In this document: one piece after another, positions 4,053 through 60,380 of the stretch | How positions within the stretch are numbered: the stretch's first letter is position 1 | Layout of the letters: the number at the start of each line of letters is the position of its first letter | DNA from: Dictyostelium discoideum | Taxonomy: Eukaryota | Length of the DNA: 64,000 nucleotides | Direction: 5' to 3' | NCBI GenBank assembly: GCA_000004695.1 | Contig: CM000153.2 | Location: 1,024,001-1,088,000 of the forward strand | The notes under the pieces: model-generated | Told to the model about the DNA's origin: nothing | What the model saw: only the letters and a program-made list of their open reading frames with translations | Database searches by the model: none | Made by a program: the position numbers and the translations under genes

Positions 4053-4203
4053 CTACATTTAAAAATAAAATTATAAATAAATTTAAAGTTTATAAAGCAA
4101 TGATTTGGGGAGCTGTTATTAAGTCACTTTAAAGAAAATTAAAAAATAAAAATTTTTTATTTTTAAAAAAAAAGAGGGGTACCCCCAAAAAAAAAAAAAA
4201 AAA

Positions 4204-4620: not shown

Positions 4621-5466
4621 AATATAATTGAAAGATTAAAAAAAATAAAATAAAAACAAAAAAGATTTTTATAGATAATCCCAAAAATTATTTTATTTAC
4701 ATTTTATATTATTTTTTTTTTTTTTGATCATTGTTTTTTAGATTTTTTTTTTTTGTCATAATTTTATTGATTTTTTAAACAATATAAAATTTTCTTTTTT
4801 ACCACATTTGTTTTCATAAACACTATAATTTGTTATTTTATAAAATATCTTCTTTTTTTAAAATTTCAAATGCAATTGAGGCAATAAACCAATAATAATT
4901 TAAATAATATTTAAATTTTTTTTTTTTTTTAAAAAATATAAAAAAAGGTAATTAAATTTATTAAAAAACTTCCCTCGGGATATCCAAAATAATGATTTAA
5001 ACAAGTGAAGTAAATAAAATTAAAATTAGTAAATTTTTTTACTAAAATTTAAAATAAAATCCAATAACATTGAAATTGATACTATCTGTTGTAATATAAT
5101 TATGTAATAATTAAATTGTTACAATTATGTTTTATCAAGATATTAAATTATATACAATCTCCCTCACAAACTAAAATAATTTATGTTTATATAATTAGAC
5201 TTTTCTCACCTGGGTGGGAAAAAGCCACGTGGTGAGTTTTTAATGTCGATTGAAAAACTCACAAACATAATTTTAAATCTCAAATATATTGTGTTAATGT
5301 TCAACAACTATCCTTATTTATTTTTAAAAAAAAAAAAAAAAAAAAATATTTATCTCATAATAAAATTATTCTAAAAGTCTAGTTTTTTCCTTTCTCCCCG
5401 AAACAAGAAAAAGAATAAAAATAAACTTGATATTAAAATTTAGGATAAAAAATCTATTGTATAAAT

Positions 5467-5583: not shown

Positions 5584-7872
5584 ATGGATACATTATCATT
5601 ATTTTTAGGATCAAAGGTAATAATAATAATTAGATTATTATTATTATTATTATTATTATAATTATTATTTTAAAATTAAAACCATATAATATTAATAATA
5701 TTTCTTTTATTTTAGGGTGAAAATAAAAAATTATTTAGCCAACTTTCAAAAATGGTATTAAACTCTGCAATTGATTCAAGAATTCAATACTGTGGTAATG
5801 AACCTTCAATTTTTGAAGATGATTATTTTGAATCTGATAATTTTAAAAAATCAAGTGAATTAATTAAAGAAAATACAAAGTTAATTTGTAATTATATTAA
5901 AGATTCTACTCAATTTTCAAGTTTACGATATCAAGCTCATATGATAGAAGATCCTTTAATTCCAAGTTTTATTGGTACAATTTCAGGCCTTTATTATAAT
6001 ACTAATACATGTACTCCTCAAGTTTCTAATAAATCTTCCTTTATTGAACATGCATTTGCTAGTGACCTATGTTCAATGGTAGGTTATGATACAAGTAAAA
6101 TACCAGATTATTATAATTCAATGAAAACAGTTTCAATAAAAGAAATAATTAAAAGAGAAGTTGAAACTGTATATCCTCATGGTCATAATACTAGTGGTGG
6201 TTCAGTATCAAACATTGAAGCATGTTGGTCAAGTTATTGGGTTAAATTTATTCCAGTTGCAATTAAAAATGCATTATTAAATGAAAATGATTTAATTGAT
6301 TCCAGGGAATTAACAATTACCCTAAATGATTGTAAAACTAATAAACAATTAATTGAATGTACAAATTGGGAATTATCAAATTTAAATGGAGATTTATCAG
6401 TAAAATTACCATATCAAATAAGTTTAGAATGTAATTTACCAATTGAAAATGTTTATGAAATTATTAAAAGATATCATTCGTGTTCATTGGGTGCATATCG
6501 GTTTTTTGTGGATAATCAAATTAATCAACCAATTTATTTAATACCAGCATCAGCTCATTATTGTTTTAAAAAAGCAGTATGTTTGATTGGATTAGGTTCA
6601 ACAAATATAAAATTAATAAAAATTGAACCAAATGGTAGAATAAATATAAATGATGTGAAAATGATTATTAAAAATTGTATTGAGAATCAAATTCCAATTA
6701 TTAATATCATATCGATATTAGGTTCAACCCAAGAGTATGGTGTCGATAATATTGATGAAATAGTTTCAATTAGAAATCAAGTAAGAAGAGACTTGAATTT
6801 TAATTTTGAAATGCATGTAGATGGTGCATTCGGTGGATATTCATTATCATGTATTAGAGATAACTTTCAATTGGAAAATCCATTAGATGATCAATTATTA
6901 TTTCCTAATAATATTGAAAATGAAAATAACAATCAAAATGAAATTGATTCATTTGATCCAGAATTAATAATTAGTAGTTATGTTAAAAAACAATTACATG
7001 CTTGTAAATTTGTAGATTCAATTACATTGGATGGTCATAAATCTGGCTTTTTACCATTTTCAAATAGTACAATTTGTTATAGAAATTCAAAGTATAAAGA
7101 TATTATTACACTCTCTTCTGCTTATATAGATATCTGTAAAAAGAATATTCCAAACTGTGGCGTGTTTGGTATTGAAGGTTCTCGTCCAGGTTATTCTTCA
7201 ATCGCAGGTTATTTAACTCATTCAATAATTCGTCCTTCGAAAATTGGATATGGTAAAATTTTAAAAAGATGTATTTTTAATGCAAAATTATTTTATATAT
7301 CCTTGTTAATTAAATTCGATGGTAATAATGGTAATAATATAAAAGTGTTTACAGTTGGTAATAATCCATCAAGTGATGTTTTAAATTATTTAAAAACAGA
7401 AATAATCGATTCGAATACTGGTAAAATCAAATCATTAGATCAAATTGTATCAAATAAAACATTATTACAAATTTTATCAAATTATGGAGCAGATTTAAAC
7501 GGTGTTTGTTTTGGTTTTAATTTTATTTCACCTTCAACTGGCGAATTAAATAATGATTATCAAAAATATGTAGAACTTAATAAAATGATAATTGATAGAT
7601 TCGATTATTCAAGAGGACCTGAAGCAGATTTGATATTTGGAAATACATTTTTAAATAATAGTTATGGTAATGAATTTATTTCAAATTTCCTTGAAACAAA
7701 TGAATTAAAAATTAATATCCCTATCTATAATAAAATCAAAATTCCAATACTAAGGTCATCAACTATGTCACCTTTTATTAGTGAAACATCTGAAGGTTCA
7801 TATATTGATATTATGCTTTACCTATTATTAAAAGAAATTACAGGTTTTTTATTTTCAATTGATAAATTATAA
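5584..7872 (+). CDS. PLP-dependent group II (DDC/GAD/TyrDC-type) decarboxylase-like protein, paralog A; join(5584..5616,5716..7872), about 729 aa
   Basis: Exon 1 is ATGGATACATTATCATTATTTTTAGGATCAAAG (MDTLSLFLGSK), followed by a GTAATA donor at 5617. The 99-nt AT-rich intron ends in TTTTAG at 5715. Exon 2 (GENKKLFSQLSKMVLNS...) is in frame with track ORF 5752..7872. Motifs present: HGHNTSGGSVSNIEA (TSGGSxSN), HVDGAFGGY and SITLDGHKSGF (the S-x-x-x-D-x-HK PLP-lysine motif). Confidence 0.8.
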
Positions 7873-9127
7873 TTAAGATAATAAATATTAAATAAAAAAT
7901 ATAAATATAAAAATAATACATAATCAATAAAGAATCATTAGAAATCTTAAAATGATAATAAATTTAGTATCAATGATTTTTTAATTTATCAATTATTAAA
8001 TAAATAATTTGATTAGGTGGTGTTTAATTATTTTTTTTTTTTTTTTTTTTGGAATTTATTATTAATTAAAAAAAAAAGTTTTATGATCTAACCCTATAGA
8101 TTCAAAATTCATACTAAATATTATTGACACAATTTTATCACTCACACAAGAGTATAAAATAATACAAAAGTGTTTTTAAAAATCATTATTAATGATTAAT
8201 AGATACACGTCCACCCCAAAATGGGTTATAAACAGCCAGTACAGCCCAAAGTGCACAACTAAATGCTTGTACGGGCTGTATGCAGAATCGATAGGGTTAG
8301 ATAATTACACTTTTTTATCCAATATTGTATTTATTTATTTATTTATTTATTTTTTTATAAAAAAATATTTTATTTAATTTAAATTTACACATATGAACAT
8401 ATCTGGAAAGTGGGTCATTAAAATAAAAAAAACTTTTTTTTTTAATTTTAATTAAATTTAATTTAAAATTAATTAAATTTAATAAAAATGGACATCTGTT
8501 TTAAATAATAAAGTAAAAATTGGTATATCTGTTTTAAACATTTTAATATAATTATTAAAATTTAATAAAATTTTATAATTATTATTTAAATTATTAATGA
8601 AATTAATTAAATTCTAAAAATACATTGGGTTATTAATATAACAAGATATTCTAAAACCGTATTAAAATTTCAAAAAAAAATTTCTTTGTTGCGATGAATT
8701 AGTTTTTCACAAGAGATTATATACCTTACAATAAAAAAGAATATCATTTTTTAAAAAGTAGATAAATGGATAATTAAGTAGATAATGGGATAAAAAAGTA
8801 AGATAATATTTTATGGAGTTATAATTTTAAACATATATTCTTTAATACCCGAAATTTCCTGTTTATTTAAAATTTATATTTGATAATTTTTCAAAATAAA
8901 CCAATATTAATTTGAATAGTGTTAGGTTTTTAATTTGAAATTTATAAATCGTGATAAATCTCTAAACAATTACTAATTAAATTTATATTAATTCTATAAA
9001 ATAAAAAAGTAAAATAAAAAACATTAAAAAAAAAAAAAATTTAAAACTTAATTTTTAAATTCGAAAAATTAATTAGTTATTTTAAAAATTTATATTGAAG
9101 ATAATTATAAATAAAGAATATTTTGAA

Positions 9128-11392
9128 ATGGATTCTTTATCATTATTTTTAGGATCAAAGGTAATATCTTTATATTATTATTATAAATCTCAAACCATAT
9201 TAATTAATTTTTTTTTTTTTTTAAAAAAAAATTAGGGTGAAAATAAAAAATTATTTTCTGAACTTTCAAAAATGGTATCAAACTATGCAATTGATTCAAG
9301 AATTAAATATAGTGGTAATGAACCTTCAATTTTTGAAGATGATTATTTTGAATCTGATGATTTTATAAAATCAAGTGAATTAATTAAAGAAAATACAAAA
9401 TTAATTTGTAATTATATTAAAGATTCTACTCAATTTTCAAGTTTAAGATATCAAGCTCATATGGTTACTGATCCCTTAATTCCAAGTTTTATTGGTACAA
9501 TTGCTGGTCTTTTTTATAACTCTAATATATGTACTACTCAATCTTCTAATAAAACTTCCTTTATTGAATATGAATTTGCAAATGATCTTTGTTCGATGGT
9601 AGGTTATGATACAAGTAATATACCAGATTATTATAATTCAATCAAAACAGTTTCTATAAAAGAAAAAGTTCAAAGAGAATTTGAAACTGTATATCCACAT
9701 GGTCATAATACTAGTGGTGGTTCAGTATCAAACATTGAAGCATGTTGGTCAAGTTATTGGGTTAAATTTATTCCAGTTGCAATTAAAAATGCATTATTAA
9801 ATGAAAATGATTTAATTGATTCCAAAAATTTATTTATTACATTAGAAGATGGTAAAACCAATAAATTATTAATTGAATGTACAAATTGGGAATTATCAAA
9901 TTTAAATGGTGATTTATCAGTAAAATTACCATATCAAATAAGTTTAGAATGTAATTTACCAATTGAAAATGTTTATGAAATTATTAAAAGATATCATTTA
10001 TGCTCATTAGGTACATTTAAATTTTTTGTAAAAAATAAAATTAATGAACCAATTTATTTAATACCAGCATCAGCTCATTATTGTTTTAAAAAGGCAGTAT
10101 GTTTGATTGGATTAGGCTCAGATAATATAAAACTAATAAAAATTGAACCAAATGGTAGAATGAATATAAATGAAGTAAAAACGATTATTAAAAACTGTAT
10201 TGAAAATCAAATTCCAATCATTAATATCATATCGATATTAGGTTCGACTCAAGAGTATGGTGCTGATAATATCGATGAAATTGTTTCAATTAGAAATCAA
10301 GTAAGAAGAGACTTTAATTTTAATTTTGAAATGCATGTAGATGGTGCGTTCGGTGGATATTCATTATCATGTATTAGAGAGAACTTTTGGTTGAAAAATC
10401 CATTAGATTATCAATTATCATTACCTAATAATTTTGAAAATGAACAAAATAATCAAAACGAAACTGATTCATTTGATCCAGAATTAATAATTAGTAGTTT
10501 TTTAAAAAAACAATTACATGCTTGTAAGTTTGTAGATTCAATTACATTGGATGGTCATAAATCTGGCTTTTTACCATTTTCAAATAGTACAATTTGTTAT
10601 AGAAATTCAAAGTATAAAGATATTCTAACATTAGCTCCTGTTTATGTCGATGATGGAAAAAAGAATATTCCAAACTGTGGTGTGTTTGGTATTGAAGGTT
10701 CTCGTCCTGGTCATTCTTCAGTTGCAGGTTATTTAACTCATTCAATAATTCGTCCTTCGAAAAACGGATATGGTAAACTTTTAAAAAGATGTATTTTAAA
10801 TTCGAAATTATTTTATATTTCCTTGTTAATTAAATTCGATGGTAATAATGGTAATAATATAAAAGTGGTCACAGTTGGTAATAACCCATCCAGTGATGTT
10901 TTAAATTATTTAAAAACAGAAATCATCGATTCGAATACTGGTAAAATCAAATCATTAGATCAAATTGTATCAAATAAAACATTATTACAAATTTTATCAA
11001 ATTATGGAGCAGATTTAAACGGTGTTTGTTTTGGTTTTAATTTTATTTCACCTTCAACTGGTGAATTAAATAATGATTATCAAAAATATGTAGAACTTAA
11101 TAAAATGATAATTGATAGATTCGATTATTCAAGAGGACCTGAAGCAGATTTGATATTTGGAAATACATTTTTAAATAATAGTTATGGTAATGAATTTATT
11201 TCAAATTTCCTTGAAACAAATGAATTAAAAATTAACATTCAAGCCTATAATAAAATCAAAATTCCATTACTCAGGTCATCAACTATGTCACCTTTTATTA
11301 GTGAAACATCTGATGGTTCATATATTGATATAATGCTTGACCTATTATTAAAAGAAATTACAGATTTTTTATTTTCAATTGATAAATTATAA
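9128..11392 (+). CDS. PLP-dependent group II decarboxylase-like protein, paralog B; join(9128..9160,9236..11392), about 729 aa
   Basis: Same two-exon structure as paralog A: exon 1 ATGGATTCTTTATCATTATTTTTAGGATCAAAG, GTAATA donor at 9161, acceptor AG at 9234..9235. It is about 90% identical to copy A at the protein level, with all PLP motifs conserved (SITLDGHKSGF, HVDGAFGGY). The 3' flank motif (ttaggtggtgtttaatt vs gaggtggtgttaaatt + poly-T) is also duplicated. Confidence 0.8.
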
Positions 11393-11535
11393 TAAAGATA
11401 ATTTTGAATAAAAAATTAAAAAAAAAATACTTTACATACCCAAAAAAGAACATTAAATATGGATTTCTAGAAATTAATAAAAGTTTAATATCAATACTTT
11501 TTAAAATTTAATAAATTATTAGACGAGGTGGTGTT

Positions 11536-11579
<44 letters not shown>

Positions 11580-12024
11580 TTTCTAGAAAAGTCTTAAAAA
11601 TTAATTATCTTTTAGTTTGTATATTAAAAATAACGTAGAAAGATATGAGCGTTTGGCTTATTTATTGTTGTAGTTTTGTTTTTTAGTTTTTTTAATAAGG
11701 ATAGTCTCCTCTTTTTTTATTTTTTTTATTTCTCCTTATTTTTTTTTTTATAATAATAATGAAAATTTTTTTTTAAAGAAAAAAGAATAGTGTAAGGGGA
11801 GCAGAAAAGAAAATAAAAAATAATATTAAACAAAGAATAGACCAACCGACCAGCGCCACATAAAATTACTTTTCACCACTTTAATGATGGAGTTTTTATA
11901 TCCAGCCAACCTTAGAATAGTGTTTAGGTATTGAGACAATGTTAAATCTTTGGGTAGAGTGTTGTTTTGTTTGAAAGTGTATTCTATTGGGCTATTAAAA
12001 AGTTTTAAATTTTTTAATCTTGGT

Positions 12025-13900
12025 GTTAGGATCAAAGGTAATAATTTTATATTATTATTATTATAAATTTCATACCATATTAATTATAATTTTTACAAAT
12101 TAGGGTGAAAATAAAAAATTATTTTCTGGTCTTTCAAAAATGGTATTAAACTCCGTAGTTGATTCAAGAATTCATATAGGGGTAATGAACCTTCAATTTT
12201 AGAAGACGATTATTAAAGATTCTACTCAATTTTCAAGTTTTAGATATCAAGCTCATATGGTTGTTGATCCTTTAGTTCCAAGTTTATTGGTACAATTGCT
12301 GGTCTTTTTTATAATTCTAATATCTGCACTCCTCAATCTTCTAATAAATCCTCCTTTATTGAAAGTGCATTTACAAATGATCTACGTTCGATGGTAAGTT
12401 ACGATACAAGTAAAATACCAGATTATTATAATTCAATCGAAACAGTTTCAATAAATGAAACAATTAAAAGAGAATTTGAAACTGTATATCCACATGGTCA
12501 TAATACTAGTGGTGGTTCAGTATCAAATATTGAAGCATGTTGGTCAAGTTATTGGGTTAAATTTATTCCAGTTGCAATTAAAAATGCATTATTAAATGAA
12601 AATGATTTAATTGACTCGAAAAATTTATAAATTACACTAGAAGATGGTAAAACCAATAAATTATTAATTGAATGTACAAATTGGGAATTATCAAATTTAA
12701 ATGGTGATTTATCAGTAAAATTACCATATCAAATATGTTTTGAATGTAATTTACCAATTGAAAATGTTTATGAAATTATTAAAAGATATCATTTATGTTC
12801 ATTAGGTACATTTAAATTTTTTACAAATAATCAAATTAATGAACCAATATATTTAATACCAGCATCGTCTTGTCTTAAAAAGGCAGTATGTTTGATTGGA
12901 TTAGGTTCAGATAATATAAAACTAATAAAAATTGAACCAAATGGTAGAATGAATATGAATAAAGTAAAAATGATTATAAAAGATTGTATTGAAACCAAAT
13001 TCCAATAATAAATGTCATATCGATATTAGGCTCAACTCAAGAGTATGGTGTTGATAATGTTGATGAAATATTTTCAATTAGAAATCAAGTAAGAAGAGAC
13101 TTTAATTTTAATTTTGAAATGCATGTAGATGGTGCGTTCGGTGGATATTCATTATCATGTAGTAGAGATAACTTTCAATTGGAAAATCCATTAGATGATC
13201 AATTATTATTTCCTAATAATATTGAAAATGATGATAACAATCAAAATGAAATTGTATCATTTGATCCAGAATTAATAATTAGTAGTTATTTTATGCTTGT
13301 AAATTTGTAGATTCAATTACATTGGATGGTCATAAATCTGGTTATTTACCATTTTCAAATAGTACAATTTGCTACAGAAATTCAAAGTATAAAGATGTTC
13401 TTACATTAGCTCCTGTTTATGTCGATGATGGAAAAAAGAATATTCCAAACTATGGTGTGTTTGGTATTGAAGGTTCTCGTCTAGGTCATTCTTCAGTTGC
13501 AGGTTATTTAACTCATTCAATAATTCGTCCCCTTCAAAAAGTGGATATGGTAAACTTTTAAAAAGATGTATTTTAAATTCGAAATTATTTTATAATTCAC
13601 TATTAACGAAATTCGATGGTAATAATGGTAATAATATAAAAGTGTTTACAATTGGTAATAATCCATCAAGTGATGTTTTAAATTATTTAAAAACAGAAAT
13701 AATCGATTCGAATACTGGTAAAATCAAATCATTAGATCAAATCGTATCAAATAAAACATTATTATAAATTTTATCAAATTATGGAGCAGATTTAAACGGT
13801 GTTTGTTTTGGTTTTAATTTTATTTCGCCTTCTACTGGTGAATTAAATAATGATTATCAAAAATATGTAGAACTTAATAAAATGATAATTGATAGATTAG
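12025..13900 (+). pseudogene. Degenerate third copy of the PLP-decarboxylase gene (truncated at both ends, frameshifts and in-frame stops)
   Basis: Only a remnant of exon 1 is left (ggtgttaggatcaaag|gtaataat at ~12025; the ATG is lost), followed by the intron. The exon-2 homolog starts ~12110 and is readable only as fragments (track ORFs 12391..12630, 13119..13310, 13322..13561). There is a TAA at ~12628, an internal deletion near 12200 and multiple 1-nt indels. It diverges from copy B after aaaatgataattgatagatt at ~13880, so the 3' ~280 nt are missing. Confidence 0.75.
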
Positions 13901-14050
13901 ATGATTTATTGGAACATTTAAATGGAATTTTAATTTTATTTTAATTTTCTTAAAATTTGATATTTTTTTTTTTTTTGTGTAATTCTTGGGAATAAAACCA
14001 ATTAAAAAATTAAAATTTCAACCTGTAATAAAATCTCAGTGTAAACACTC

Positions 14051-14087
<37 letters not shown>

Positions 14088-14407
14088 CTAAAACCTTTCG
14101 GTACTTTTAAAATTTGGGAAAAAATAAAACTTGACACTTTCACAAATGAAACAACCCAATTATTTCATTTAAAAACCACCTCCCAAACAAAATAAATATT
14201 TATAACTCGCCAACAAAACTATTTTTATAATTTGATATCGCGAACAAACAAAAAAAAAAAAATTAAAAAAAAATAAAAAATAAAAAAAATAATTCTCCCA
14301 TCATGATTCGATTGCAGTGCAAACAAAACGATATTTTTTATTTTATTTTTTTTTTTATTTTATTTTATTTTTTTTTTTTTTTCAAAACAATTTTTTGCAT
14401 AAAAAAC

Positions 14408-33958: not shown

Positions 33959-34090
33959 AAAATAAAAAAAAAGTTTTTTTTTTTTTTTGAAGTTTAAGAA
34001 ATAAAAAAAATGGCCCGGGGTTTTTAAAAAAAAAAATCCCATAGTTTTAATGGGCGAAAAAACCCCCTTTATAAATTTTTTGGGGGGAAG

Positions 34091-34499: not shown

Positions 34500-34599
34500 N
34501 NNNNNNNNNNNNNNNNNNNNNNNNNNNNNNNNNNNNNNNNNNNNNNNNNNNNNNNNNNNNNNNNNNNNNNNNNNNNNNNNNNNNNNNNNNNNNNNNNNN
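34500..34599. other. Assembly gap (100 N)
   Basis: A run of exactly 100 n characters. Confidence 0.99.
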
Positions 34600-35522: not shown

Positions 35523-36449
35523 TTTAAACCTTTTCCAATTTTATTTTGGTTAAAAAAATTATCCCAAAATAAAAAGTTCCCTTTGGGAAAAAAAAAAAAT
35601 CCGGGAACCCCAAAACCAACCAAAAGGTTTTTTTTTTTTTAAAAAAAATCCCCAAATTAAAAATTTAAAAAAAAAAACGGGGCAAAAAAAAAAATTTTTT
35701 TTTTTTTCTTTTATTTAAAAGCCAATCATTCGGTTGTTAATTAAAAATAATAATTTAGTAGGGCAGAAACATAACCCAGAGGATATATTTTTTATTTTTT
35801 TTATTTTTTTTTATTTTTTTTATTTTTTTTTTTATACCAATTTTCAAGAATATCTTGGAACTGGAAAAAAAAAAAAAAAAATAAAATTCAAAAAAAAAAT
35901 TCAAAAAAAAAATTCAAAAAATAAAAACAATCATAGCACCACTTCACACAGCATCAAATAAATTAATTATACTTTTTACAATAAAAACCATGTAGAATGA
36001 CATTTTAGTATAAACCAATTAATGGTGTCAAATCACCCCCTTTCTAACGTAGCAATTGTCTGTTCATCTGCAAATTCAATAAAAAGCGAAAATAAAAAAA
36101 AAAAAAAAAAAAAAAAAAAAATAAAAATAAAAAAAAAAAAAAAAAAAAAAAAAATATCTAAATATCAAACGATTCCATTTTTAATTTATGATAAAATAGT
36201 TTTATAATTATTATTATTATTATTTTCATTTTTTTACTTTTTTTATTTTCATTTTATTTTATTTCATTTTTTTTTTTTTATTTTATTTTTACTTTTTTTG
36301 GTCTTTTTCTTATTTCCTAAATTATTATTTTTATTTTTTTATTTTTTTCTATTTTTTTTTATTTTTTTTTAATTTTTTTAATTTTTTTAATTTTTTTTTT
36401 TTTATTTTTTTTTATTTTTTTATTTTTGAAAAATTTTAATATGTAATAA

Positions 36450-57882: not shown

Positions 57883-59350
57883 TCAATCATCATTATTATT
57901 ATTATTATTACTATTATTATTATTTGATTGTTCAATAGCAGCAGTTGTAAATTTAATAATATTATTTGATAATGTAATTTCATCAGTTTCACCTAAACGT
58001 TGACCAGTTATACCTTCAGCATATAAATAATATTTATCAAGATCAGGATGTAACATACCTGCAAATTCTCTAACTTGAGTTCCTTGTGGTACTAACATAC
58101 AATCCCTAAGTATGCTACCACCAGATTTATCACATGATAAACTTTTTAAATTTTTAACAGGATAAACTGGTATGAATTTCTTTAATTCTACAGCTTCTTT
58201 TATTGCAGTTTGAATACCAGTTGAACCATATCTAAATAATACTAAATCTCTGAGTTTCTCTAATCTACCTTTTAATTTATCATCAGATTGTTTTAATTTT
58301 GTATTGATTTTCTCATTGTCACTACAATCATCATAGGTTTTAAAATTGTCGTCACCTTCTTTATATTCTATAAATCCTTGAGATTTCATTTTACGTAAGA
58401 AACATTCAGCTAATGCACTGGTTGGTATCATTGAATAGTCTGGATATTTTGAACAAATTCTTGAGATATTTAAATCTGATGTTGATTGATCAACTTTATT
58501 CAATGCTAAAACTGTTGGAAATCTAACATCTAAAAATGAATTTACAAATTTATGAACATCATCATCTGTCCACACTGATAAATTAATTGGTTCCCTTAAA
58601 TCTATATTCTCTAATGATTGTCTAACTACTGATATTCTTGTACCATATCCTGATAATTTCTTTTGTAATATTAAATCTGCTGGACTTTCTATTTATTTAT
58701 TTTTAAAAATTAATTAATTAAATTGAATTTATTTTATAAAAAAAAGGGGGGAGGGTCCATGCATAAAATTACTTTTCACCCCTCCCACTTTTTTTTTGAT
58801 ATTTAAATTTTTATATCCTTTTTGGCCAACTTTATTATTTTTTTTACTTACTTGTTGAAGCTTGTTTTCTAATTATATTACCCCATCTTTTCCAAAGATT
58901 ATTAAAAATCCAAGAATGAATTTCTTCTTTTAACCATTGAATATCATTTATTGGATCATAACCAGTGGTTTCTTCACCTTTTTCATTTGTATTACCAGAT
59001 ACATCAACGACATGAAGGAGTACATGAGCATGACGAAGATCATCGAGGAATTGATTTCCTAATCCTTTACCTTCTGATGCACCTGGTACTAATCCTGCAA
59101 CATCTAACATTTTCACTGGTATATTTCTATTACCATCTTTACATGATCCATATCTTGGTGAACATAATGAACTTTTATCATATTTTTTACATGGACATTC
59201 TGTTAAATAATATGCAACTCCTATATTTGGTTCAATCGTTGTGAATGGATAATTACCAACTTTTGCTGTAGAATCTGTTGCTGCATTTAAAAAACTACTC
59301 TTACCTGCTGATGGTTTACCAATACAACCAATAATTAATTCATGTGACAT
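57883..59350 (-). CDS. Obg-family P-loop GTPase with Cys-rich zinc-ribbon insertion and C-terminal TGS-like region (yeast YGR210C / archaeal-eukaryotic conserved type); complement(join(57883..58688,58852..59350)), 434 aa
   Basis: Exon 1 (MSHELIIGCIGKPSAGKSSFLNAATDSTAKVGNYPFTTIEPNIGVAYYLTECPCKKYDKSSLCSPRYGSCKDGNRNIPVKMLDVAGLVPGASEGKGLGNQFLDDLRHAHVLLHVVDVSG...WGNIIRKQAST) has the G1 motif GKPSAGKS, the G2 motif YPFTTIEPN, the G3 motif DVAGLV and a C-x-C...C...C insert, matching YGR210C almost motif-for-motif. The donor is ACA A|GTAAGT at 58851. The 163-nt intron ends aaatag| at 58689. Exon 2 starts K SPADLILQKKLSGYG... (cf. YGR210C [22 protein letters not shown]) and runs to the TGA at 57883. 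Confidence 0.85.
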
Positions 59351-59481
59351 ATTTCTTTTTTTTTTAATCTGAAAATGTTTTTGTGATCGTTTTTAAAAAT
59401 AAATTTTAAAAATAAATTTTTTTTTTTTTTTTTTTTTTTTCCATTTTTTTTTTTTTCTTTTTCTCAACACATTACCAAATC

Positions 59482-59520
<39 letters not shown>

Positions 59521-59585
59521 CTCAACACATTACCAAATCAAACACATTCGCAATTGCTTTTTTTTTTTTTTTTTTTTTAAAAAAA

Positions 59586-60380
59586 ATGAATAATAAAGAA
59601 TTAAAAAATTTTAATAATGAAAATCAAAATATTTTTTGGAAAGTAATACATAATAAAGTTTTATTTAATTTAATATTTTATTTTATAGAAAATGATGAAA
59701 CAATAAATCAAAATCATTTATTTTATCAACATTTTATTACAAATAATCTTGATTATTCAGATTTAAGAATTAAATTTAAAAATTTAAAAAATTTAAATTG
59801 GTTTGTTGAAAAAAATGAATATTCATTATTATTAGATAAATTAAAACATAATCAATATATAAATGTAACAACAGAATCATTAAAATTATTCCTTTCAAAA
59901 TGTGAAGATATTAAAATCATTGATTTAGTTTATAAATATTTAAATGATAAAAATTTATTACCATTTCAAAATTTAGCAGAAGAATCAATTTTAAGTGGTA
60001 ATAAAATTTCATTTGAATATTTTTATAATTATAATGATAATAATAATAATAATAATGATAATAATAAATTTATATCAATAATAAATCCAACAACTATTTT
60101 ATATTTATATGAAATTTGTTCAGATATTGAAATTATTAAATGTTTAATTAATAATTTAAAAAAAAGAAATCAATTTAAATTAATTTATAATGATTTTGTA
60201 AGAAAGAAAGCAATCTCTTACTCTTATTTAAATAAAAATTTACAAAAGAATATCCTTTTTCAATTCATTTTATCAAATGAAGAATTTTATTTTATTCCAC
60301 CTCAATTAATTCAACCATCAAATATAATTCAATCAAATACACCAATTATTTTACCTTCAAATTTAACAATTCCTCAATTA

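Follow-up and report, generated by a model that had tools for sequence, protein, structure and literature searches.

The DNA analysed here is a stretch of 64,000 nucleotides from Dictyostelium discoideum AX4, in the following called the window. Towards its end lies DDB_G0283773, a Ygr210-type GTPase gene encoded on the minus strand (exon 1, 59350-58856; exon 2, 58692-57883). The spliced translation of the window gene and the AX4 DDB_G0283773 protein are identical at 434 of 434 residues. The exons are separated by a 163-nt intron on the same strand (58693-58855, boundaries GTAAGT...ATAG), and within it the plus-strand runs GGGAGGG (58749-58755) and CCCTCCC (58780-58786) face each other. A preliminary description of the sequence had reported these runs as a G:C stem in DNA of otherwise about 90% AT. 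Both the position and the surroundings of the stem were borne out, as the intron is 90% AT outside the hairpin and 46.5% AT in the hairpin part. Complementarity reaches into the flanking A and T runs, where the left arm (AAAAAAAAGGGGGGAGGGT, 58738-58756, plus strand) and the right arm (ACCCCTCCCACTTTTTTTT, 58778-58796, plus strand) are complementary over 19 nt at 84%. G-run/C-run palindromes flanked by A and T are found in the window at 4173-4186, 34017-34087, 35650-35682 and 58738-58796.

The 19-mer CATAAAATTACTTTTCACC occupies 58762-58780 of the plus strand, corresponding to the hairpin loop plus one base of the right arm. It had been noticed to recur exactly 47 kb away on the same strand, inside a GC-richer island. 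We confirm the intronic site (site B) and the distant site (site A, 11859-11877). Site A does lie in such an island (62-68% AT compared with 84% AT in the flanks), and these two are the only matches in the window, even with three mismatches allowed. By itself an exact 19-mer is uninformative, since a metagenome scan with it matched 13 unrelated contigs by chance, all with unrelated flanks and 30-60% GC and none of them a dictyostelid copy. Moreover, three complex exact 16-mers arise by chance in the same window. Both observations would suit a coincidence of AT-rich composition, in which sites A and B are unrelated and their common 19-mer is fortuitous. However, when the window was shuffled 200 times with its local composition kept, a complex dispersed exact repeat of at least 19 nt appeared only twice (P ~0.01), and the right flanks of sites A and B are independently alike (P 0.002-0.017). 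A third copy, A', has separate blocks in common with A and with B and bridges both sites, and the limits of similarity coincide with indel boundaries in sister genomes. The chance reading of the common 19-mer is effectively refuted and retains next to no probability; the earlier judgement that sharing by chance is very unlikely was sound.

Site A is part of a unit of about 120 nt (AAGGGGAG...GCCAACCTT, 11794-11913, plus strand). Similarity between A and B runs beyond the 19-mer over about 70-90 nt with indels, and the part of site A homologous to the intronic sequence spans 11841-11913 of the plus strand. It includes a second homology block, located on the plus strand at 11893-11913 in site A and at 58808-58834 in site B. 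This block consists of TTTTTATATCC (11893-11903 and 58808-58818, respectively) followed by GCCAAC-CTT in A (11905-11913) and GCCAAC-TTTA in B (58825-58834). Copy A' is located in the pyridoxal phosphate (PLP)-decarboxylase array of D. cf. discoideum (L021:6370-6440, minus strand) and is homologous to 11806-11873 of site A on the plus strand. In a five-way alignment A' matches different blocks in A than in B. An nhmmer profile recovers the five copies with E values of the order of 1e-10 to 1e-21 (A, 5e-11; A', 5e-10). At the level of sequence, alignment and profile establish A, A' and B as homologous.

Site A lies in an AX4-specific spacer (11562-12025) between decarboxylase copy 2 and degraded copy 3. 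The spacers of the decarboxylase array are rearranged between strains; in FIR and FIW the corresponding junction holds no counterpart of this spacer, and FIR, FIW, FIY and D. citrinum have no orthologous site A. As A and A' are oppositely oriented and site A is missing from the FIR, FIW and FIY arrays, the orthology of A and A' is read from their neighbourhood only. The A lineage is present in AX4 as well as in the sister lineage and would therefore be older than B. Concerning the relationship of the copies, B shares 11 informative columns with A and 9 with A', A and A' agree against B in only 4, and the B branch is the shortest. The putative donor and its copy are only about 75% identical. 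Given this near-star relation (11 versus 9 informative sites), an unseen third master copy is as likely a source of B as direct copying from A. A search of 218 kb of DNA from eight dictyostelid genomes revealed no additional copy, and a literature search for the sequence strings of the element gave no match.

The orthologous intron was compared in seven genomes: AX4, FIW, FIR, FIZ, D. citrinum, D. firmibasis and D. dimigraforme. This comparison delimits an insert of about 93 nt (insert B, 58738-58830), which comprises an A-run, the G-run, the core and the C-run and extends up to GCCAAC. It is carried by the three D. discoideum strains AX4, FIW and FIR and is missing in D. cf. discoideum FIZ, the sister lineage, as well as in D. 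citrinum, D. firmibasis and D. dimigraforme. With the insert the intron measures 163 nt (AX4), about 168 nt (FIW) and about 129 nt (FIR); without it, 79 nt (FIZ), 124 nt (D. citrinum) and 73 nt (D. dimigraforme). The D. firmibasis intron reaches about 141 nt, as calculated from gene length, yet lacks insert B. The phylogeny is based on exon distances, which amount to 1.4-1.5% between AX4 and FIR or FIW, 2.8% between AX4 and FIZ and 6-8% to the other species. Since insert B is confined to D. discoideum sensu stricto, it was gained on that stem. The remainder of the intron is conserved to an equal degree among AX4, FIW and FIR. In the FIR allele the GTTGGCC-TATA part, which is enclosed by two TAAAGTTG/CAACTTTA repeats, has been deleted, and a core of 24 nt is invariant in all three D. 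discoideum alleles.

Only at site B does the G-run/C-run hairpin flank the common core, and it changes between strains. Aligning the copies revealed hairpin arms neither in A nor in A', and site A folds with a minimum free energy (MFE) of 0 to -3.7 kcal/mol, that is without a hairpin. The arms of FIW and FIR differ from those of AX4 without compensatory change; the covariation term over the three B alleles is +0.78, and FIW breaks five of eight G:C pairs. The hairpin had been regarded as part of the common element, a view that does not hold, since neither A nor A' has it and the strains are not alike in its arms. Some potential for G-run/C-run pairing is kept in all three D. discoideum alleles. 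Together with the invariant core, this could reflect weak constraint instead of short divergence time.

The preliminary description had taken the recurrence of the 19-mer as pointing to a dispersed short element, for which a transposon terminus, a shared regulatory module and a small RNA family were proposed. The dispersed element stands insofar as the sites are homologous beyond the 19-mer and the intron copy is a discrete insertion, and a transposon terminus and a shared regulatory module remain candidates. The small RNA family is not supported, as there is no Rfam match, DUSE, Class I motif, known miRNA or conserved structure. Rfam found nothing in the window at gathering thresholds; at E<=10, both sites gave sub-threshold noise only (e.g. 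STnc370, 28 bits as compared to a gathering score of 54), and ARAGORN detected no tRNA-like sequence. The DUSE, reportedly [AT]CCCA[CT]AA according to Hinas et al. 2006, occurs 6 times in the window against 9.8 expected, with none at most 150 nt from 11859 or 58762. Class I RNAs have a conserved 11-nt motif, CCTTACAGCAA, which adjoins the 5' half of the terminal stem. With up to two mismatches it is present 7 times in the window against 8 expected, and within neither element. The DUSE of a Class I RNA precedes the start, or a TGTG box, by about 60 nt (PMC7919456). Insert B resembles these RNAs in containing a G-starting sequence of about 45 nt that has pairable ends and a T-run behind it, and in belonging to a dictyostelid genome. 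It differs from them in having no DUSE about 60 nt upstream, no TGTG box and no 11-nt motif of the CCUUACAGCAA type, and in not being conserved beyond D. discoideum. A conserved terminal stem of variable sequence, as in Class I RNAs, is likewise lacking; the stem exists at site B only and is absent from A and A'.

Precursors of miRNAs are expected to contain a duplex of about 21 nt with at least 60% pairing and an energy below -0.2 kcal/mol/nt, and to give rise to DrnB-dependent small-RNA reads of the mature 5p and 3p strands (PMC6161686 Table S1). The site B hairpin is sufficiently stable by the energy measure (-14.9 kcal/mol over 50 nt). Its stem, which encloses a 21-nt loop and has 7 G:C pairs (19 nt at 84% if the A:U runs are counted), falls short of a 21-nt duplex. 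Two intronic miRNA loci, mir-1180 and mir-7102, likewise form hairpins within introns of protein-coding genes; their hosts are DDB_G0293106 and DDB_G0284713 (PMC6161686), not DDB_G0283773, and their sequences do not match the one described here. Each of 24 published mature miRNAs was compared as well, and all of them showed 6 or more mismatches. Small or antisense RNAs may nevertheless be transcribed from the site.

Alternatively, the hairpin or its G-rich boxes could be functional, either as an intronic GBF-type cis-element acting on the GTPase gene or its splicing, or as precursor of a small hairpin RNA. G/C boxes are scarce in such DNA, and Dictyostelium transcription-factor sites are typically of that kind. 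The consensus of the GBF element reads (T/G)G(T/G)G(T/G)G(T/G), as a rule with paired half-sites in promoters (PMC2257962). By inspection, FIW (GGTGGGG, TGGGGGG) and FIR (GGGGGGG) match this consensus exactly. Moreover, all three alleles have the G-run upstream and the C-run downstream of the invariant core, and the minus strand carries TATAAAAA 21-27 nt upstream of the G-start, followed by a T-run. The AX4 candidate GBF sequence, set beside the FIW and FIR variants, is GTGGGAGGGGTG. Like GBF G-boxes and CA-rich elements (PMC2257962), insert B has G-rich and CA-rich boxes that stand out from AT-rich surroundings. The candidate site, however, is intronic instead of promoter-located, the AX4 arms miss the 7-mer consensus by one base, and the strains differ in their boxes. 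Neither conservation nor compensatory change supports the stem register, and the fold is no better than that of dinucleotide shuffles (z -0.7 to -1.3). A small hairpin RNA would be shorter in its stem than a miRNA duplex requires, and T4 runs, present inside the core on both strands, would terminate RNA polymerase III in either direction. DUSE, Class I motif, Rfam gathering score and a published miRNA match are all lacking. The window contains other G/C palindromes of this A/T-flanked type, and in it complementary run pairs are not favoured over same-type pairs (P 0.34). Finally, four related species have a working gene that lacks the insert. We consider a function of this kind very improbable.

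Two further origins were rejected. Common in-frame peptides (...GYKN...VKSNFM...) and indels of 12 and 6 nt had suggested that a piece of a transposon ORF or of some protein-coding gene was involved. The minus-strand ORF of 69-85 aa has no Pfam match and no word-sharing protein among 5.8 billion, and a HMMER scan of 1.84 billion proteins returned a single spurious tandem-repeat protein. There is no homologue, and the A'/B indel of 16 nt is not a multiple of three. A SINE or a retroposed small RNA would have, in sense orientation, a poly(A) or A-rich tail at its 3' end and a head derived from tRNA or 5S/7SL RNA. Here the homopolymer is misplaced, being a 5' A-run on the plus strand or a 3' T-run on the minus strand in all alleles. 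Nothing tRNA-like (ARAGORN) and nothing in Rfam was found.

Another explanation is an undescribed, very small non-autonomous mobile element of about 90-120 bp with a target-site duplication of about 10 bp, which moves by local hops and of which B would be an internally deleted copy. Its proposed ends are A-run/GGGGAG ... GCCAAC-YTT, and A and B indeed have an (A)nGGGGAG start and a GCCAAC(C/T)TT end in common. The site A unit is flanked on the plus strand by a perfect 10-nt direct repeat, AGAATAGTGT (11784-11793 and 11914-11923), whose right copy begins exactly where the homology to insert B stops (P ~0.001, with a null model matched for composition). Compared with the sister genomes, B is a clean insertion. 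The FIZ and FIY arrays contain DDE_Tnp_4 transposase genes, which suggests that the region attracts transposons. Furthermore, the copy-2 spacer contains a single GAATAGTG-TTAGGT patch that resembles an empty site. An empty-site reconstruction for site A was discarded, as it is limited to this 21-nt patch and the broad flanks of site A fail to align with the supposed empty site. The flanking repeat at site B matches at 7-9 of 10 positions, not above AT-rich background (P 0.15-0.65), and A' has neither a flanking repeat nor the GGGGAG end. GAATAGTGT was counted 4 times against 0.4 expected. A third AGAATAG lies inside the site A unit itself (11834-11840), a point against a mobile element.

No terminal inverted repeats were found, the GGGGAG and GCCAAC ends not being complementary; an inverted repeat exists only internally, in the G-run and C-run of site B. 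A poly(A) tail is absent from either strand. Two copies per 64 kb would predict several more in the 218 kb examined, where there are none. A transposon terminus, considered since A' is near DDE_Tnp_4 genes in FIZ, was not supported: A' and the DDE gene are not connected by any inverted repeat, AX4 has no remnant of the FIZ DDE_Tnp_4 ORFs, and the intact FIY transposase gene has no adjoining copy. A known D. discoideum DNA transposon, thug-S, has miRNA-yielding hairpins, an intron of its own and many genomic copies (PMC4894637, PMC6161686). Like thug-S and MITE-like elements, the sequences described here are short, non-coding and hairpin-capable, occupy intron and intergenic sites and include one copy flanked by a direct repeat. 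Unlike these, they have no terminal inverted repeats and form no multicopy family in 218 kb, and the hairpin lies outside the common sequence. Overall, we regard a mobile element as doubtful. Should it hold genome-wide, the repeat catalogue of D. discoideum would gain an element type that is both new and unusually small. It is improbable that there is, jointly, a very small, low-copy, intron-colonising mobile element without inverted repeats and, more broadly, a class of palindromes serving as structural punctuation of dictyostelid non-coding DNA.

Templated (filler-DNA) insertions arise during double-strand-break repair or by replication template switching of the MMBIR/FoSTeS type. As for such an insertion, insert B is missing in the sister lineages and homologous to another locus of the same genome. 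It is a single insert in the range of tens to about 100 bp from elsewhere on the same chromosome, lineage-specific, low in copy number and without terminal inverted repeats. The junctions are messy, with homopolymer and G/C-run filler, and short direct repeats (AGAATAG three times, CAACTTTA twice) mark junctions and later deletions. The junctions of donor and recipient are obscured by about 25% divergence and by homopolymer runs; with donor and copy only about 75% identical, the event is too old for junction microhomology to be read. The perfect 10-bp flanking repeat at site A is not required by simple templated repair, and a third, unseen source is possible.

We favour, as rather probable, that insert B is a young duplicate, about 93 bp long, of a low-copy non-coding sequence, neutral and spliced out with the intron. 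Older representatives would reside in spacers of the nearby PLP-decarboxylase array, where AX4 has site A and D. cf. discoideum has A'. From such a sequence a segment was presumably copied at the DNA level into the GTPase intron on the D. discoideum stem. This may have occurred through a tiny non-autonomous element that inserted and duplicated about 10 bp of its target, or by microhomology-mediated templated copying in break repair or replication. The insert would be transcribed within the pre-mRNA and removed with the intron, doing nothing specific. The hairpin would be a by-product of G-rich and C-rich tracts at the insert edges, which probably mutate fast by slippage, indels and microhomology deletion. 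As there is no sign of an RNA gene or of a conserved hairpin, the locus points to ordinary genome turnover.

The importance of the finding is modest only. Insert B provides a clean, datable case in which a Dictyostelium intron approximately doubled, from about 79 to 163 nt, through a short copied segment. It indicates that a conspicuous GC hairpin can arise in DNA of 90% AT without selection, and it cautions that exact k-mer sharing together with a strong-looking stem does not amount to an RNA gene.

The stretch under study is AT-rich (about 20% GC), and its encoded proteins carry poly-N and poly-Q. The GTPase gene lies at 57883-59350 on the minus strand, with a 163-nt intron at 58693-58855, and its spliced product is identical at 434 of 434 positions to D. 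discoideum AX4 DDB_G0283773, a Ygr210-type OBG GTPase. A preliminary description placed a GC hairpin in this intron, in AT-rich surroundings; this is confirmed, the rest of the intron being 90% AT. A 27-nt exact direct repeat, TTTTTCTCAACACATTACCAAATCAAA, at 59458-59542 (58 nt spacing) lies in the short intergenic stretch that separates the GTPase gene from a divergently oriented 1218-aa gene starting at 59586. At 659-720 the ACT trinucleotide forms a pure microsatellite longer than 60 nt.

The 19-mer CATAAAATTACTTTTCACC occurs exactly and on the same strand at 11859-11877 (site A) and 58762-58780 (site B, in the intron), as previously reported, and the window has no third match even with three mismatches allowed. 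It is the window's longest complex dispersed exact repeat, three 16-mers being present too; comparable repeats of at least 19 nt appeared in 2 of 200 shuffles that preserved local dinucleotide composition. Because 13 unrelated metagenome contigs also match it, the 19-mer is weak proof by itself, and the earlier argument that its sharing exceeds chance is upheld by other evidence. The right flanks of both sites are alike, with two indels, reading TTTTTATATCC and then GCCAAC(C/T)TT (P 0.002-0.017 against GC-matched segments). Strain FIZ of D. cf. discoideum carries a third copy, A', within its decarboxylase array, on the minus strand at L021:6337-6470. A' has GGTCCAT.G and ATATTTAAATTTTT in common with site B, and GCC.CATAAAATTA plus an A-rich stretch upstream in common with site A. 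A profile made from five copies recovered those five, with E-values of 1e-10 to 1e-21, and no other sequence. Right-flank similarity, third copy and profile establish A, B and A' as homologous, and the 19-mer match between A and B reflects real homology.

The orthologous GTPase locus was compared between AX4 and six other genomes. Insert B is present in the introns of AX4 (163 nt) and of the D. discoideum strains FIW (~168 nt) and, shortened, FIR (~129 nt). It is absent from those of D. cf. discoideum FIZ (79 nt, with an A34 run at the site), D. citrinum (124 nt), D. firmibasis (~141 nt, from gene length) and D. dimigraforme (73 nt). The indel boundaries, 58738-58830, fall where similarity to site A ends on either side. 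Exon divergence from AX4 is 1.4-1.5% in FIR and FIW, 2.8% in FIZ and 6-8% in the remaining genomes, grouping AX4, FIR and FIW together with FIZ as their sister. Insert distribution and exon phylogeny therefore make a single gain on the D. discoideum sensu stricto stem the parsimonious interpretation. The A lineage is older, since it is found in AX4 and FIZ whereas FIZ has no B. Of the informative columns, 11 unite B with A and 9 unite it with A', against just 4 where A and A' are alike and B differs; on these counts B best keeps the ancestral sequence. The relation of the three is nearly a star, and an unseen third sequence is a possible source of B.

Site A belongs to a tandem array of three copies of a PLP-dependent decarboxylase-like gene (Pfam PF00282) at 5590-14100, starting near 5750, 9272 and 12141 (periods 3520 and ~2795 nt), each with an 11-codon mini first exon. 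Copy 3 (~12026-14100) has decayed into a pseudogene, its exon 1 degraded and its reading frame broken by multiple frameshifts. Upstream of copy 1, at 5200-5245, is a GC-richer hairpin-capable box, CTCACCTGGGTGGGAAAAAGCCACGTGGTGAG (arms CTCACC/GGTGAG). Site A lies within a 460-nt segment, 11562-12025, between copies 2 and 3; no counterpart was found at the same junction in FIR and FIW, both flanks being conserved there. A' is in a comparable position, just past the conserved 3' flank of a decarboxylase copy, in opposite orientation. Each related genome examined differs in copy number and spacers, the extremes being a single copy in D. citrinum and at least five copies or fragments in FIZ. DDE_Tnp_4 transposase genes are found within the arrays of FIZ and FIY (both D. 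cf. discoideum): a fragment (E 8e-7) adjoining a 492-aa gene with a long poly-Glu tract in FIZ (L021 6802-9822), and an intact 327-aa gene in FIY (L023 12518-13773). No trace of these transposon-derived genes is seen in the AX4 window. About 200 nt from A', L021 5942-6155 forms a large palindrome (75-nt arms, 91% complementary, 64-nt spacer) within a ~600-nt segment interrupting the decarboxylase 3' flank, possibly a foldback or MITE-like insertion.

Insert B may have been copied by rare transposition of a small mobile element. A perfect 10-nt direct repeat, AGAATAGTGT, brackets site A exactly at the homology limits (P ~0.001); GAATAGTGT is tenfold enriched in the window, and a further copy of it in the copy-2 spacer looks like an empty site. 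Sites A and B also have common ends, starting (A)nGGGGAG and ending GCCAAC. However, there are neither inverted terminal repeats nor a poly(A) tail, A' shows neither the element ends nor a flanking repeat, the repeat flanking B does not exceed AT-rich background, and AGAATAG is present inside the site A unit too, at 11834. No other copy was detected in 218 kb, nor beside the intact FIY transposase gene. Templated repair by microhomology-mediated copying may equally have made insert B, as it fits the complex spacer rearrangement just as well as transposition does.

GGGAGGG (58749-58755) and CCCTCCC (58780-58786) are present as first described, and arm complementarity continues into the flanking A8 and T9 tracts (19 nt, 84%). 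The shared sequence does not include the hairpin: G-run and C-run are both missing at site A and at A', and no folding is predicted for site A. In the three D. discoideum alleles the 24-nt core GTGAAAAGTAATTTTATGCATGGA is invariant except for the first base in FIR, and the 3' third of the intron is equally invariant among them. The 5' and 3' arms read GTGGGAGGGG and CCCTCCCCCC in AX4, GTTGAGAGGG and CTCCCCCCACCC in FIW, and GTGGGGGA and CTCCCCCCC in FIR, with T-runs of 8, 19 and 18 nt, respectively. FIW has 5 of 8 G:C pairs broken, and in FIR the GTTGGCC-TATA part is gone through a deletion between two 8-nt direct repeats. All three alleles are foldable, yet not above dinucleotide shuffles (z -0.7 to -1.3), and the covariation term of their consensus structure is positive (+0.78). 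Opposite-type G/C runs within 60 nt are clustered in the window (5 pairs versus 1.1 expected, P 0.004), with no preference there for complementary over same-type pairs (P 0.34). Non-coding DNA at 4173-4186, 34017-34087 and 35650-35682 has similar G-run/C-run palindromes set in long A/T runs (e.g. AAAAGAGGGGTACCCCCAAAA, AAAAAACCCCCTTTATAAATTTTTTGGGGGGAAG); a 100-N assembly gap (34500-34599) lies ~400 nt from the second. The GC hairpin is best regarded as an incidental, unstable by-product.

The suggested small RNA family found no support. Rfam gave no match at its gathering thresholds, what appeared at E<=10 was noise, no tRNA-like sequence was found, no DUSE lies within 150 nt of site A or B, and no Class I 11-nt motif is present. 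The 24 published mature miRNAs gave no match, and both known intronic miRNA loci are in other genes. Against a Pol III transcript, T4 runs on both core strands would terminate RNA polymerase III. The idea of a coding fragment, from an ORF that crosses site A on the minus strand, was rejected: the ORF has no Pfam match and no homologue among 5.8 billion proteins, a HMMER scan gave one spurious match only, and an indel relative to A' has a length not divisible by three. The FIW and FIR alleles match the published GBF response element; AX4 is one base short. The proposed dispersed short element is partly borne out, as a homologous dispersed sequence; neither the small-RNA nor the shared-hairpin idea is supported.

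The best-supported reading is that insert B is a neutral, lineage-specific duplicated segment of ~93 bp that would be removed with the intron by splicing. It would then represent an ordinary kind of genome turnover, here seen in unusual detail.
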